A stretch of 64,000 bases of DNA, taken from IMG/VR virus record IMGVR_UViG_3300008448_000033, positions 21,592 to 85,591 of that record. One strand, 5' to 3'. The notes under the pieces were generated by a model, which was given only the letters and a program-made list of their open reading frames with translations, was not told the origin of the DNA and searched no databases. Origin of the DNA: a virus. The translations under genes were made by a program, and so were the position numbers. Of the stretch, positions 26,743 to 32,003 are shown one piece after another; the stretch's first letter is position 1, and each line of letters starts with the position of its first letter.

Positions 26743-28145
26743 GAAACTTTCTTCTCCTTTTTTTGTTTCAAATATTTTTCTTTCAATGCCTTCTCTTGGT
26801 CTTTCGCGGATTTTACCAAAATATCCGTAACACTTTCAGTAGTTTGTTGCAGAACTTTTATGCTTACGTTTGATGTATCCATGAAAATTGGGAATACTAA
26901 TCCATCAGGTCCATTTCTGTTCTTAGCAACATAAAAACGTCCTTCGTTTGTATTTTTATCTTTTATTGTTCTTGAAACTGTAAAGATAAAGTCTGCAACG
27001 AAACATTTATTGAAGGCTTCAGAAATGCTCTCCATTGTAATAACTTCTGCATTAAGACCGCTTCTGTTTGTTTGTGAAGCTGTCCATACAGGGCATCCAA
27101 ATGTTTGAGCAATAGCACGAAGCTCTTCATAGATAGTCTCCAATTCGTTACGCTTTTCTTTCTGTGCGCTGATTGGTTTAATTAGATCGCCATAATCCAC
27201 AATGACCATATCAATTTTAAAATCTTTACGTCTTAATTTTTCAAGATGATTTTTGATCATATTGGTCGTTGCTGATTTAGTTGGATATTCCTTAACAATG
27301 AGCTTACCCTTAATGTCTTTGATACCATTCCAAACTTCTTCTTTGAATGTTGGTACGTCAGATAGAGGAATTCCAGTAATGCAGGAATCGTATCTAAGGG
27401 AGACAACCTTATCTTGTAGCTCTAGAGTATAGTGAACAACATTCAGACCTGCTTCCAAAGCTTTGGAACCAAGATGAACAAGTACCATGCTTTTGCCAGC
27501 ACCAGTTGGTGCAATAACTACACCAAGCTCGCCTTTGCCCAAGCCACCCTTTGAAATACCGTCAATAAGCTGCCAACCAGTAGAAACTGGATTTCTAGCC
27601 AATAACTCAAATCGCTTTTCAAAATCTAGGTGATAGTCATAACCATGATTATTGTCTGTGCCAAGCTTAATTGCGTCATTAATAACTTTACTCACCTCAT
27701 CGAATGATGAATTCTGTATAAGACCAACGGATTTAATCATAGCCTCTTTAAGCTTTTGCTTTTTACAAAAGTCAAGAGAAACATCCTTAATATGTTCTGC
27801 TCCTTCAACGCTAAAATCATTGCTTTGGATACGAGCATAATAATCTCGTACCTGTTTCTGTAGCAATTCGTTTTCAAAGCCTATATCGCTTCTAAGAATA
27901 ACAGTAATTGTATCTCTTGTTGGGTGAGTTCCATATTTCTTACGGTATTCAAAGACTTTTTGTGTGAATACACGAAGATATTTTAGTTCTAAAAAATTAA
28001 TGTCTAGGACTTCACTGATTTGGTCAGCAAACACCCGATCATCAAGAATCAAATTGACCAAGTTCTCTTGAAACTTGGTTCCAAACTTTGAAAAGTCCTG
28101 CTTTTCTTCGATAAATGACATTTTCTCTCCATCAACAGTTTTCAT
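26739..28145 (-). CDS. dnaB: replicative DnaB/gp41-like helicase
   Basis: APTGAGKS, VHYTLE, VIVDYGD, WTASQTNR, AKNRNG. Confidence 0.92.
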   Translation of the reverse strand: MKTVDGEKMSFIEEKQDFSKFGTKFQENLVNLILDDRVFADQISEVLDINFLELKYLRVFTQKVFEYRKKYGTHPTRDTITVILRSDIGFENELLQKQVRDYYARIQSNDFSVEGAEHIKDVSLDFCKKQKLKEAMIKSVGLIQNSSFDEVSKVINDAIKLGTDNNHGYDYHLDFEKRFELLARNPVSTGWQLIDGISKGGLGKGELGVVIAPTGAGKSMVLVHLGSKALEAGLNVVHYTLELQDKVVSLRYDSCITGIPLSDVPTFKEEVWNGIKDIKGKLIVKEYPTKSATTNMIKNHLEKLRRKDFKIDMVIVDYGDLIKPISAQKEKRNELETIYEELRAIAQTFGCPVWTASQTNRSGLNAEVITMESISEAFNKCFVADFIFTVSRTIKDKNTNEGRFYVAKNRNGPDGLVFPIFMDTSNVSIKVLQQTTESVTDILVKSAKDQEKALKEKYLKQKKEKKVS

Positions 28146-29118
28146 TCATTATCCTCTTTAGGTTCATATAAAGCTCTTCAAAGTTACTCTCGCCAAAGCC
28201 ATCTGTCAACATCATTTTTTGTATTTCAATTTTGTTGAAAGTGCATTCACTATTTTCTAGAGCATAATTTATTTTATGTACATCTTGAATAGATAAATTT
28301 GAAGAATACAGTTGCATTAAACTGTAATTTAATTTGATTTTTTTTTCTTGATCTACAATATTATCAAAGGCTTTTGCTTTTCCTTTATTTTCTCTAGAAA
28401 AAGAAATAATGTCGTCTATGTAATAAGTTTTTTCCTCTGATAGAAATGGAAACCTTTTTGCAACAGTCGGCAAGCCTACACCGTCAACACCATCAATATT
28501 GTCCGATGTGTCTCCAGACAAAGCTCTAGCTAAACAGAAATTATTTGGGTGTATTTTATACTCTTCTAAAATTCTTTTTGTATTAAGAATCTCTTTCTGC
28601 ACAGGTCTATAAAGAATTGTATTTTTATTACACAACTGTATAAAATCTTTGTCGCTTGAGACAATAACTTTTTGATAATCTTTTAGTTCTTGCTTATAAA
28701 CAAGTGCAGAAATAATGTCGTCTGCTTCAACGCCATCAAACATTAATTGTATAATTGGCATCTGATTAAGATATTCAACTAATCTTAGCATTTGCCAGAC
28801 TTTATTTTTTAATTCTTCATTTTCGTCTAAATTCCTAATATTTCTGTTTAGACGTAACGGCTTACGACCATCTTTGTATTCTTTATAAGATAGTTTTTTC
28901 TTTCGTGAACCGCCAGTTCCATCCCAACAAATAATAACTCTATTTGGATTAACTTCTCTTATAAGTTTTTGTAAAATCTTTAAAAATCCTTTAATTCCAC
29001 CAATTGGTTCGCCATTATTTGATAAGCTTGGATCTACTATAAATGCTCTAAAGTAGTTATTATTACCATCAATTATTAGAAGCTTCTTCTTTTCTTGACT
29101 TGACGAGTTCTCGCTCAT
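28132..29118 (-). CDS. 5'-3' exonuclease / flap endonuclease (Pol I N-terminal/T4 RNase H-like)
   Basis: LIIDGNN, CWDG, YKDGR, VEADD, SSDKDF, GDTSDNIDGVDGVG. Confidence 0.92.
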   Translation of the reverse strand: MSENSSSQEKKKLLIIDGNNNYFRAFIVDPSLSNNGEPIGGIKGFLKILQKLIREVNPNRVIICWDGTGGSRKKKLSYKEYKDGRKPLRLNRNIRNLDENEELKNKVWQMLRLVEYLNQMPIIQLMFDGVEADDIISALVYKQELKDYQKVIVSSDKDFIQLCNKNTILYRPVQKEILNTKRILEEYKIHPNNFCLARALSGDTSDNIDGVDGVGLPTVAKRFPFLSEEKTYYIDDIISFSRENKGKAKAFDNIVDQEKKIKLNYSLMQLYSSNLSIQDVHKINYALENSECTFNKIEIQKMMLTDGFGESNFEELYMNLKRIMNENC

Positions 29119-29485
29119 GACGCTCTACCTCTGCAACACAGCTAAATAATTCTTTAGTTGCATCGCCAATAAATGGACCGTCATAACCGCTGTTGCGGAG
29201 CCTTTTAGCAACATAGAAAAGACGGTACAAAACGTCATTATACCTGTCTAAGTCTTTAAAGTTCACAAGAAGCTTATTGTATTTTTCACGAAGTTCTTCT
29301 AGGTCTTCTGATAGCCGATCTGCCATATCTGATTCTGATTGGACGATCATGGTCATATAAGTTGCGCGTTCTTTTAGCGTAGTTGGGATTTCATCACCTT
29401 TACCATCCACAAGACTACCAGCTTTTAAAATTTCTTTAGCCTCTTCTATTTCTGCTTTAAGCTTTTCTAATTCTGTATTAATCAT
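29069..29485 (-). CDS. hypothetical coiled-coil protein
   Basis: ATGA overlap with the deaminase; runs 50 nt into the exonuclease gene. Confidence 0.55.
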   Translation of the reverse strand: MINTELEKLKAEIEEAKEILKAGSLVDGKGDEIPTTLKERATYMTMIVQSESDMADRLSEDLEELREKYNKLLVNFKDLDRYNDVLYRLFYVAKRLRNSGYDGPFIGDATKELFSCVAEVERHERELVKSRKEEASNN

Positions 29486-29920
29486 AATTTATAGGTTCCT
29501 ATGGTTTCACTATCAACAGTATAATAAACTTTTGAAATACCACGCTCCTTAAGGATCTCATGGCACATAACACAAGGCTTGCTCATACGGTCTTCATGCT
29601 TTCCCTTGCTTGCACGGGCAACATAAACTATAGCACCTTTAGTCTGTGCGCGAGGGATATTAAGAATCGCTTTAATTTCTGCATGATAAGTAGAAAGACC
29701 CTTCTCTTCGGGACGATACTTCGCGCCAATAGAAGAATACTTCTCAGAATTAATTCCGAAGTTAATGATAGCACCGCCCCGAACAAGCACAGCGCCATGA
29801 CGAAAGTTGCCATAGGTAGAACACTCTGCCATCTTCTTAGCTAACTGAAAGATACCTCCGCACGCTCTTGGAACAATCCTTCTTGCTGATTAAGGTCTGC
29901 TGGTTGTCGTTGGTCTTCAT
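29482..29920 (-). CDS. Zn-dependent cytidine/dCMP-deaminase-family protein; full length requires a +1 shift near 29848
   Basis: RHGAVL, HAE, PCVMC; GGAGG-led ATG 29920 is one nt out of frame with the catalytic ORF 29482-29832. Confidence 0.8.
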
Positions 29921-30398
29921 TTATTGCCTCCGTTGATGATTCACTATACTGCTGAACTAATTCTTGTTCAAGTTCTTTCTTAACCGACTTTGCATCGTGA
30001 TCATAAAATTCTTTATACCATTTTTGATCTCTTGCGGTTTTTTTAGAATGACAGTTGGCACAACGGACAACACACTTCTTTATTTCTTTTTCTAAGGTTT
30101 TAACTGTGGTTCTACCAGATACCATTTTAGAAACGTCTTTGTGTTTATCACCAGTTACATGATCTAGCTGTAAAACAAATGGATCTTTTTCTCCGCAATC
30201 TATACAGGGATGTTGAAGATAATATTTAAACACATATTTTCTTCCAATAAATCGTCTGTAATCGTCTTTTACGCGACTACAAACTTTACAAAAGTTTTTT
30301 GATTTAAACTTTTCTCGCTCACCGATAGCATTACAATTTTTACAAGTAAACAAGATTTCTTGTTGTACTGGTCCAAACAACTCTAATTGTTCATCCAT
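29841..30398 (-). CDS. free-standing HNH endonuclease
   Basis: CIDCG..LQLDHV..EIKKCVVRCANCH plus N-terminal CxxC..CxxC; start revised to MDEQLE behind GAGG. Confidence 0.8.
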   Translation of the reverse strand: MDEQLELFGPVQQEILFTCKNCNAIGEREKFKSKNFCKVCSRVKDDYRRFIGRKYVFKYYLQHPCIDCGEKDPFVLQLDHVTGDKHKDVSKMVSGRTTVKTLEKEIKKCVVRCANCHSKKTARDQKWYKEFYDHDAKSVKKELEQELVQQYSESSTEAINEDQRQPADLNQQEGLFQERAEVSFS

Positions 30399-30408
30399 GT
30401 AAACCTCA

Positions 30409-31338
30409 TTAATTTTTGATACCAAACTTTTCTCTAATATCAAGTAGAGCAATATTTTTCATTTTTGCTTCAATATCGACATCCACAGAATCTTCTAGCA
30501 TTAGCTTTAGCTGCTCTTCAGGAATATATCTTATCATTTGCGAATGCGCTCGTTTTTGATTGTATGGAGCATTTTCCATACCAATCTCTGTATTTGAAAG
30601 ATGTTGCAATGGTTTGATATTACCCCAAGTGTTTAAAACATAAGGAAAAACTTCCAAAAAATTTTGATCATCGTTAGAAATGATATGATGATGGCTATCG
30701 AAAACAATAGGAACATTAATTTTTCTACTAATTCTAAGAAGCTGTCCAACATTATAACACCTTTCGTCATTCTCTAAGGTTAAACGATTTTTAATATTAT
30801 TGGGTAGAGAAGAAAATACTTCAACAATTCTATCTTCACGATTGGCTTTACCACCGTGAATATTGATAGCATAGTAAGGAGTTTGTTCAAACCCCATAGT
30901 ATCAAATACCCAAGCGTGATATGCAAGTTCTTTAATGCTGTTCTCTACCGTACTGTCTTTATCGCTACTGATAACACAAAACTGACCGGGGTGACAAGTT
31001 ACTCTGATCCCTGATTCCTTGAACTGTCTCCCAGCAAGAGCGAGGTCTGTTTTAATTTGTTCATCGTTTTTAGCAATATCTCCACAGAATTCAAATAGTG
31101 GGAATAAGCCACTTGAAAGTCTGAAAGATTTGATGTTGCATTCATTGAGACGAGGAATGATTCGCAGGATTTCCTTGACATTTCCACGATATGTTTCAAG
31201 AATTCTCTCTCTTGTGTATTTCCCATTTTTGTATGCACCTAATTGTAAAAGTTTTTCATCTATGATGTTCTCATAAATAGTAGTCCCATCGCGTTTTGTA
31301 CGCGGTTCAATCCACTGGCAGCAAAGTCCCAAGCTCAT
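30409..31338 (-). CDS. uvsE: UV-damage endonuclease UvsE/UVDE
   Basis: FRLSSGLFP, HPGQF, INIHGG, LTLENDE, FDSHHH, QHLS, AHS, IEAKMK. Confidence 0.92.
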   Translation of the reverse strand: MSLGLCCQWIEPRTKRDGTTIYENIIDEKLLQLGAYKNGKYTRERILETYRGNVKEILRIIPRLNECNIKSFRLSSGLFPLFEFCGDIAKNDEQIKTDLALAGRQFKESGIRVTCHPGQFCVISSDKDSTVENSIKELAYHAWVFDTMGFEQTPYYAINIHGGKANREDRIVEVFSSLPNNIKNRLTLENDERCYNVGQLLRISRKINVPIVFDSHHHIISNDDQNFLEVFPYVLNTWGNIKPLQHLSNTEIGMENAPYNQKRAHSQMIRYIPEEQLKLMLEDSVDVDIEAKMKNIALLDIREKFGIKN

Positions 31339-31577
31339 TAAGAATCCTTTGTGTCTAGAAGAGCGTTATCTAGTTCATACTGTACGCTATCAAGTGCTTT
31401 CTGTCTAGCTTCTTCTATTGAATCCGCTTCGCCTTTTTCTTCTACTTTTATGTGCCACCAATATTTTCCATCCTCTTTTGGTCCACCAATTATGATTTTA
31501 ATTGGACCATTATCGCCAATAATCTTTACTCTACCAGCGTGTTTTAAATCTATAGTAGTCCAATCAATTTTTGACAT
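31338..31577 (-). CDS. hypothetical protein
   Basis: First ORF after the promoter at 31596-31624. Confidence 0.5.
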   Translation of the reverse strand: MSKIDWTTIDLKHAGRVKIIGDNGPIKIIIGGPKEDGKYWWHIKVEEKGEADSIEEARQKALDSVQYELDNALLDTKDS

Positions 31578-31624
31578 AAAAAAGCCCTCTTGGCAAGAAT
31601 GCCAGAAGGCTTTTAAAGTGTAAA
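31578..31624 (-). promoter_or_regulatory. terminator hairpin with an embedded promoter
   Basis: AAAGCCTTCTGGCA/TGCCAAGAGGGCTTT stem; TTTACA-17-(TGg)CATTCT with -10 over the loop. Confidence 0.55.
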
Positions 31625-31631
31625 ATTGTTT

Positions 31632-31979
31632 TTAAAGTTTTCCGTGATCGGGCACAGAAAATCCTGTCTTTGGAATAATTAGTTTTCCGTTTTCGTGAAC
31701 AATGATACCATCAAACATCAATTCTGACACTGCAATTTTTAATTGAGTACGGTAATCACCACCTCTTGGTTTTGCAAATGGTTTGCCGGTAGCTTGTTCA
31801 TAAATATCTTGTAAATATGGCGATGGAACTGGTTTCAACTCAGCTAGATGTTCTTCACCTGATGTCCCAACAAATTTTTTATAATTCTTTTTGATGTTAT
31901 CAAAAACACCTTCTTTAATAACATGATTCTTTATTTCTTCTCTGATTATGTTTCTCAAATAACTTTCTGTAATTTTCAT
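31632..31979 (-). CDS. hypothetical protein with head-targeting-like leader
   Basis: MKITESYLRNIIREEIKNHVIKEG. Confidence 0.6.
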   Translation of the reverse strand: MKITESYLRNIIREEIKNHVIKEGVFDNIKKNYKKFVGTSGEEHLAELKPVPSPYLQDIYEQATGKPFAKPRGGDYRTQLKIAVSELMFDGIIVHENGKLIIPKTGFSVPDHGKL

Positions 31980-32003
31980 TTAATTCTCCCAAATTTTTGT
32001 AAT

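Follow-up and report, generated by a model that had tools for sequence, protein, structure and literature searches.

In the bacterial prfB (RF2) gene, a Shine-Dalgarno (SD)-like purine run (AGGGGG or GGAGG) is separated by exactly 3 nt from a downstream CUU Leu codon, after which come a UGA stop and a C (CUU_UGA_C); the shift comes early, at codon 25/26 in E. coli, and the protein is almost wholly encoded in the +1 frame. According to a 2025 prfB survey, the SD-like and slippery elements are hyper-conserved together with the frameshift and absent where prfB is in-frame (PMC12421855). Here we describe a similar arrangement in a viral deaminase gene, on the minus strand of a 64,000-nt stretch of DNA (the window) of an uncultured freshwater phage, taken from IMGVR_UViG_3300008448_000033, an IMG/VR virus record of 85.6 kb with an estimated completeness of 47%. 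From comparative analysis, we consider it highly likely that this gene is expressed by a programmed, prfB-type, SD-stimulated +1 ribosomal frameshift. As in prfB, an SD-like run precedes a CUU Leu codon by exactly 3 nt and a pyrimidine follows; the shift is early (Leu24), the protein is almost wholly in the +1 frame, and the E-site codon in the window is the UAU of E. coli prfB. In-frame homologues have lost the SD-like run, just as is described for prfB (PMC12421855; PMC5009743).

The locus departs from prfB in that the A-site codon is sense (UCA, CCA or CAA among relatives) rather than UGA, the next base is an invariant G rather than C, and the skipped base may be C, the slippery CTTT being relaxed to CTY_Y across the clade. 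No release-factor feedback is possible with a sense codon, and the gene encodes a phage enzyme of nucleotide metabolism. The cassette therefore falls outside the strict prfB class, which has TGA-C, but would work like a member of that class minus the stop. To our knowledge, natural SD-stimulated +1 sites beyond prfB are almost unknown in bacteria and phages. The yeast Ty1/ABP140 site (CUU_AGG_C) needs a rare, slow A-site codon and has no rRNA-pairing stimulator, whereas our locus has common A-site codons and a conserved SD-like stimulator. The capsid and tail genes of Listeria phages PSA, A118 and A500 (CCC_UGA; ACA_CCC_UCC) also exemplify +1 recoding in tailed phages, and in the PSA capsid site a sense codon follows the shift codon, as here (PMC5009743). 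However, those sites shift on a Pro codon, are stimulated by a stop or a pseudoknot, and make a second, C-terminally extended structural protein; the shift is not needed for the only functional product. The ‘corrective’ +1 shifts covered in a recoding review, mostly mitochondrial, resemble our locus in that an extra base is bypassed and the non-shifted product is useless (PMC5009743), but our locus has a dedicated, strongly conserved SD-like stimulator and belongs to a bacterial/phage system. A full-text literature search returned no +1 frameshift in a phage deaminase and no natural prfB-type cassette with a sense codon. Searching by term brought up neither case in the recoding review (PMC5009743), in the GeneTack survey (PMC3711429) or in the 2025 prfB survey (PMC12421855); for deaminases, the review has only an incidental -1 shift, in cdd of Bacillus (PMC5009743). 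A sense-codon +1 cassette in a phage deaminase is apparently undescribed.

In the window, ATG 29920 opens a 27-codon open reading frame (ORF) near the end of which the cassette reads CGG AGG TAT CTT TCA G (29860-29845). The +1 codon CAG (29847-29845) lies right after the T at 29848, and omitting that T yields a conceptual product of 145 amino acids with zero internal stops. The body frame is open from 29886 (upstream stop 29889-29887) to 29482, and its first ATG, GTG or TTG is the ATG at 29832, 22 nt from GGAGG and 4 nt beyond the stop of the short ORF. An earlier note on this DNA had described an SD-led ORF of 27 codons with the deaminase body in the +1 frame and had likened the junction to the RF2 cassette. 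Its coordinates are all correct on the minus strand, and the internal sequence resembling an SD, the 3-nt spacer and CUU_U are all present. GGAGG-N3-CTY occurs only once in the whole 85.6-kb genome, both strands searched, but given that composition predicts about one chance match per window, the motif by itself is not significant. What takes the cassette beyond chance is its placement exactly at the frame junction, together with its conservation. RNAalifold detected no conserved RNA structure 5′ or 3′ of the site, and single-sequence z-scores were unremarkable; a 3′ stimulator is therefore unsupported.

A protein search gave 84 relatives, which fall into three groups by N-terminus: 145-residue proteins containing ..RRYLQLAKK.., which is exactly the predicted shifted product; proteins of ~131 residues with M-x5-GGIFQLAKK.., corresponding to the body frame read through the same DNA; and 116-residue proteins beginning MAECS. 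We also retrieved 160 loci, drawn from IMG/VR and JGI/ENA metagenomes, and used a script for their classification. The split architecture is shared by 52 distinct related loci from many freshwater samples, with bodies 53-88% identical to that of the window. In these loci an SD-preceded ATG (found in the N-terminal frame in 51 of the 52) opens an ORF, MDNDGPQE..SKKxRRYL with variants, that is one frame behind the body. The earlier note had looked to an alignment of related phages for support, and the alignment provides it: the frame break and GGAGG-N3-CTY are kept in every one of the 52. A scan of IMG/VR for the split cassette pattern gave 24 contigs, every one of them a deaminase locus, while the same scan for an in-frame version gave 0 contigs and a looser in-frame pattern matched only unrelated genes.

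The cassette consensus of the split loci is CGGAGG-NNN-CTY-N-(C/A)AG. GGAGG and the 3-nt spacer are invariant (52/52), and GGAGG is mostly followed by U, which extends the match to GGAGGU. The C that precedes GGAGG in 51 of 52 loci fits the remark in the recoding review that there is no anti-SD pairing 5′ of the stimulator (PMC5009743). The E-site codon is TAT in 40 loci and otherwise TTA, TTT, ACT, CTA, CTT or GCG. In the P site, 48 loci have CTT and 4 have CTC; T stands at the skipped position in 24 loci and C in 28. The codon in the 0-frame A site varies (TCA 24, CCA 22, CAA 6), and the +1 codon is CAG in 46 loci and AAG in 6. The +1 codon ends in G in all 52 loci (position 29845 in the window, directly after the A-site codon), even though the phage prefers CAA and AAA for Gln and Lys; in prfB, this position holds a C that is conserved just as strongly. 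The 0-frame tail after Leu has 3 codons in 35 of the 52 loci but ranges from 2 to 22, and the position of its stop is not conserved.

We built a tree from body DNA 3′ of the site only (total length 9.06 substitutions per site). The third positions of CGG, AGG and CAG/AAG underwent 0 parsimony changes on this tree, whereas 42 flanking third positions changed 4-20 times each, with means of 16 upstream and 11 downstream; the third position of CTT changed 3 times (T/C) and the skipped base 8 times. Codon preference cannot explain this invariance, since the conserved codons are rare or minor in the phage: in the window, CGG and AGG are the two rarest Arg codons (1% and 7%), and CAG and AAG account for 17% and 23% of the Gln and Lys codons, respectively. 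Upstream of the site, variation at the three codon positions of frame 0 is 0.42/0.41/0.66. In the segment from the site to ATG 29832 (QLAKK), it is 0.26/0.19/0.50 in the body frame, so that this segment is conserved as protein. The third-position excess thus moves from frame 0 to the body frame at the Gln codon, indicating that the coding frame switches at the cassette. On this sequence evidence, both parts of the gene are under strong purifying selection and the site is selected at the nucleotide level. We conclude that the conserved split and its signal very probably represent deliberate recoding.

In a protein tree, a branch with 99% support (Shimodaira-Hasegawa-like approximate likelihood ratio test, SH-aLRT) parts the split clade from 29 in-frame marine homologues, which read ..KKTQRYLELAKN.. 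or ..RRRYFDLA.. and have no GGAGG. The cassette was found in 0 of 31 anchored in-frame loci and in 0 of 52 more distant loci, all of the latter in-frame. Among the fetched loci within the split clade only two are in-frame, L011 (CGG AGA TAT CTT CAG) and L002 (CGA AGG TAT CTT TCG); both are at tips, and each broke GGAGG via a different synonymous change. These are homologues with the continuous TATCTTCAG frame that the earlier note had named as evidence against recoding. Such homologues do exist, as a minority of relatives, but the loss of GGAGG from both speaks for recoding and not against it. With in-frame database proteins added, the tree implies one gain and up to seven losses of the split. 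One in-frame sub-lineage has itself diverged, which indicates that in-frame alleles are real and viable.

The predicted 145-residue product of the window aligns without gaps to that of the in-frame relative L011 (145 amino acids) at 80% identity, and its frame-0 part is homologous to the N-termini of in-frame relatives. The 116-residue ORF alone matches Pfam PF00383 (dCMP_cyt_deam_1) with 47.7 bits (cut-off 25), but only from profile position 17, whereas in-frame relatives score 58.2 bits, with the match starting at residue 18 and profile position 2. Residues H79, A80, E81, P115, C116 and C119 are invariant in the family alignment. The AlphaFold model of L011 (mean pLDDT, the predicted local distance difference test score, 91.8) has a strand at residues 9-12 and helix α1 at residues 18-31. 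This helix has the junction L24|Q25 at its middle, consistent with the earlier proposal that the fused product restores α1, and Met30 as its second-last residue. Accordingly, a product starting at Met30 would, on the model, lose the strand and nearly all of α1.

The family profile aligns ..RRYLxLAKK..S to the first helix of solved deoxycytidylate (dCMP) deaminases, with matches in the Protein Data Bank (PDB) to cyanophage S-TIM5 4p9c (E 2.4e-8), S. mutans 2hvv and T4 1vq2; a single-sequence PDB search gave no match. The top Foldseek matches are dCMP deaminases (TM-score 0.55-0.6), and phrog_174 (dCMP deaminase) is matched at 6.4e-19. NCBIfam matches are far under their cut-offs, and all the likenesses to dCMP deaminases are distant. 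Phage (T4 Cd, S-TIM5 4P9C) and bacterial (ComEB) dCMP deaminases share with the family the cytidine deaminase (CDA) fold, the HAE and PCxxC zinc motifs and the α1 helix (..YxxxA..S). They differ in sequence (18-25% identity), and the family described here adds an N-terminal extension of ~17 residues with a predicted strand; unlike the split clade, all known dCMP deaminases are in-frame. Judged by profile and fold comparison, the enzyme is a distant, small dCMP-deaminase-like protein. Since it groups with dCMP deaminases of nucleotide metabolism, the rationale of the earlier note, that a potentially mutagenic deaminase would be rationed, is unsupported.

We propose that ribosomes would initiate at ATG 29920 and translate 24 codons, placing Leu-tRNA on CUU in the P site while GGAGG(U), three bases upstream, pairs with the anti-SD end of 16S rRNA. 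The short distance between the SD and the P site would strain P-site pairing, and Leu-tRNA would slip from CUU to UUU (UUC in relatives), skipping base 29848, so that CAG is decoded next. The outcome would be a 145-residue dCMP-deaminase-like enzyme, with the junction falling inside the codons of its first helix (..RRYL|QLAKK..), while ribosomes that do not slip would terminate three codons on and free a 27-residue peptide. From the likeness to prfB, we infer that slippage occurs in the P site and that a slow A-site codon is not required. Frameshift efficiency is probably sub-stoichiometric, and our best guess at the purpose is a constitutive attenuator that limits enzyme output from a strongly initiated message. 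Several observations weigh against this proposal. In prfB the A-site stop is key to the pause, and with common sense codons in its place the efficiency may be low. Four loci have CUC_C, for which +1 re-pairing is poor and simple P-site slippage fits less well. SD use by the host can be judged only from GGAG or GAGG 5′ of 27 of the 49 long ORFs. Lastly, in-frame alleles make up ~11 of 62 database protein clusters, with up to seven reversions on the tree; their recurrence indicates that the frameshift is dispensable and leaves its regulatory role unproven.

The earlier note had proposed that UCA, through the supply or modification of Ser-tRNA, gates the shift. This is not upheld, given that the A-site codon varies among the 52 split loci, that all three codons are common in the phage (TCA 28% of Ser, CCA 60% of Pro, CAA 83% of Gln) and that the matching tRNA is encoded in some relatives. 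Of three near-complete relatives, two have a tRNA cognate to their own A-site codon, tRNA-Ser(UGA) in G001 (A-site UCA) and tRNA-Gln(UUG) in G002 (A-site CAA), although the comparison, which covered these three genomes and five others that are 43-70% complete, includes too few for inference. Relatives have 10-26 tRNA genes. The phage itself carries eight, 5′ of the window (G000:C1:9285-12064): Leu-CAA, Leu-UAA, Thr-UGU, Glu-UUC, Lys-UUU, Asn-GUU, Arg-UCU and Ile-UAU. In the 47% of the genome that has been sequenced, no tRNA reads the A-site or P-site codon, nor UCA, CCA or CAA. The predominance of readers of A-ending codons suggests a host with a G+C content above the phage’s 34.6%. The lack of such tRNAs and the invariant G of the +1 codon leave room for a role of tRNA balance. 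We nonetheless consider it rather doubtful that the cassette acts as a tunable sensor, and not as a fixed attenuator, with an output that tracks either tRNA balance or the free anti-SD of translating ribosomes during infection. In the former version, the tRNA for the 0-frame A-site codon (UCA, CCA or CAA), which tRNA genes of the phage itself provide in some relatives, may be balanced against that for the invariantly G-ending +1 codon. Such a sensor would be a tRNA- or ribosome-state-gated timer of the supply of dTTP precursor.

Other explanations of the split can be set against SD-stimulated slippage. The break is almost certainly neither a 1-nt assembly error, for which the earlier note had allowed, nor the mark of a recently inactivated pseudogene. 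A single extra base in a T run, and a few relatives with a continuous frame, might suggest as much. However, among contigs from four public runs placed on 29600-30100, a 510-nt contig of an independent run is identical to the window over 29764-30100, spanning the site; no placed contig, related strains included, has an insertion or deletion in this region; and we rejected artefact and decay on the grounds of this independent assembly, the break shared by 52 loci and the purifying selection on both parts and on the site. Transcriptional slippage was rejected because the run comprises just three Ts, and half of the loci have TTC instead. A -2 shift was rejected because it adds one residue, whereas in-frame relatives equal the +1 product in length. 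It is also very improbable that two products are made, a leader peptide and a body started at ATG 29832 or at a non-AUG codon, by way of the internal GGAGG or of reinitiation after TAA 29839-29837. The stop of the short ORF does lie close to this ATG in the window, and gene callers model the gene in this way, with 8 database proteins starting MAECS and 41 at an upstream body-frame ATG. Nevertheless, Met30 is replaced by Leu in many split loci (LAKKLA..), where the body frame has no ATG, GTG or TTG nearby, so that the earlier dismissal of the internal ATG as a true start holds good. GGAGG lies 22 nt from ATG 29832 and no near-cognate start is conserved at a workable distance; the body frame upstream of the ATG shows protein-level conservation (QLAKK); initiation at Met30 would sacrifice most of α1; and in-frame relatives show exactly the junction that the shift predicts. 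A further alternative, which we regard as unlikely, is that the +1 change is real but not driven by an SD acting on P-site slippage, the CUUY quadruplet being decoded as such by a special tRNA of host or phage, or an out-of-frame Gln- or Lys-tRNA binding as in Ty3, with a slow A-site gate. In its favour, the CUC_C variants re-pair poorly, the G of the +1 codon (52/52 despite the preference for CAA/AAA) could mean selection for a well-supplied +1 tRNA, and the phage’s tRNAs, mostly for A-ending codons, suggest a host pool poor in such decoders. But a mechanism involving tRNA only leaves the absolute conservation of GGAGG and its spacing unexplained, a search with ARAGORN of the window, the remainder of the genome and the three near-complete relatives brought up no unusual tRNA, and the A-site codon is variable, common in the phage and in G001 and G002 matched by an encoded tRNA.

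A serious alternative to the attenuator accepts SD-stimulated slippage but gives it no regulatory purpose. An ancestral 1-nt insertion may have fallen in a CGG AGG TAT CTT context that permits slipping and have been compensated as a ‘frozen’ indel, selection merely keeping the stimulators so that enough enzyme gets made. We regard this as quite possible, though short of probable, and what makes it serious is that reversion to an in-frame state occurs and lasts. The split arose once and has reverted several times, with later decay of the SD-like element; conservation does not extend to the length of the 0-frame tail; there is no additional conserved RNA structure; and ‘corrective’ or compensatory frameshifting is a recognised class (PMC5009743). 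On the other hand, the split is kept in ~80% of the lineages of a very deep clade although deletion of one base restores the frame, and the N-terminal ORF has a strong SD of its own and a promoter-like site, which would fit deliberate attenuation. Neither point is decisive.

If the proposed frameshift is correct, an RF2-type cassette can work, and persist very long, without a stop codon. The locus separates rRNA-mRNA pairing and the CUU_Y slip from the A-site pause, and this separation is testable on natural E-, P- and A-site variants and on in-frame revertants. Translational recoding would join the possible controls that phages exert over nucleotide metabolism, and the 16-nt cassette could serve synthetic biology as a compact, stop-free +1 switch. 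The comparison also exposes a systematic annotation error in the database proteins of the family. Of 62 classifiable proteins of the clade, 41 have an artificial N-terminus in the wrong frame, 8 are truncated (MAECS start) and 11 are in-frame; the ‘131-amino-acid’ proteins are gene-caller artefacts, since they are split loci read in the body frame. Gene callers have misannotated the family (protein-database hits P0003-P0079) with M-x-GGIFQLAKK.. starts or internal-Met starts.

Table 1. Features of the deaminase locus in the window, listed in the direction of transcription
Feature	Position	Strand	Basis or remark
Promoter-like TTGAAC-17-TATAGT	29943..29971	-	Consensus scan match only; just 5′ of the short ORF, in the 3′-terminal part of the HNH ORF
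Shine-Dalgarno GGAGG of the N-terminal ORF	29927..29931	-	6 nt 5′ of ATG 29920; sequence
Frame-0 coding part, codons 1-24 (Met to Leu24, ending ..RRYL)	29849..29920	-	Third-position variation; homology to in-frame N-termini
Internal SD-like stimulator C-GGAGG, encoding Arg-Arg as CGG AGG	29855..29860	-	Conservation in split loci
3-nt spacer / E-site codon TAT	29852..29854	-	Spacer length invariant
Slippery CTT_T: P-site Leu codon CTT and predicted skipped base T 29848	29848..29851	-	Split-locus alignment
0-frame A-site codon TCA (sense; TGA at the prfB position)	29846..29848	-	Split-locus alignment
+1-frame part, CAG (Gln25) to stop, 121 residues, deaminase body with HAE and PCxxC	29482..29847	-	Sequence
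0-frame stop TAA closing the 27-codon non-shifted product	29837..29839	-	Sequence
Internal ATG, Met30 of the full protein; not a real start	29830..29832	-	Leu in many split relatives

The window has a G+C content of 34.6%, and 48 of its 49 long ORFs are on the minus strand. Relatives share the gene order UvdE, deaminase, small ORF and 5′-3′ exonuclease. In the window, an HNH endonuclease ORF (29841-30452, minus strand; phrog_2255, 6.6e-25) lies between uvdE and the deaminase gene. Its tail overlaps the N-terminal ORF of the deaminase by 80 nt in the third frame and holds the promoter-like site. Among the ~160 related loci, this HNH gene occurs only in the window and in L012, and it is therefore probably a mobile insertion; for the same reason, a shift out of the frame of the HNH ORF was rejected as an explanation of the split. 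A match to TTGAMW-N15-19-TAxxxT, again a consensus match only, lies ≤70 nt from the start of the short ORF in 16 of the 52 related loci. Directly 3′ of the deaminase gene, and overlapping its stop (ATGA 29485-29482), is an ORF of 138 amino acids (29069-29485, minus strand) that is only partly conserved in relatives and is without a match in Pfam or PHROG.

Against cultured phages, megablast of 28000-32000 gave no match, and no relatives were found in 185,579 prokaryote genomes. Homologues of the deaminase detected by tblastn in cultured phages are all <60% identical and all in-frame, the best being those of Streptomyces phages (40%). The exonuclease is ≤39% identical to any cultured-phage protein, with the best match in a Microcystis phage. 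The N-terminal ORF of the window starts MKTNDNQQT, which departs from the clade consensus MDNDGPQE. In the MDNDGPQE subgroup (L003-L021 and relatives), codons 6-8 of this ORF (Pro-Gln-Glu) are nearly always the minor codons CCG CAG GAG, which create a second SD-like AGGAG ~48 nt 5′ of the shift site. This could reflect constraint at the nucleotide level or simply close kinship. The equivalent sequence in the window, at 29905-29897, has diverged.

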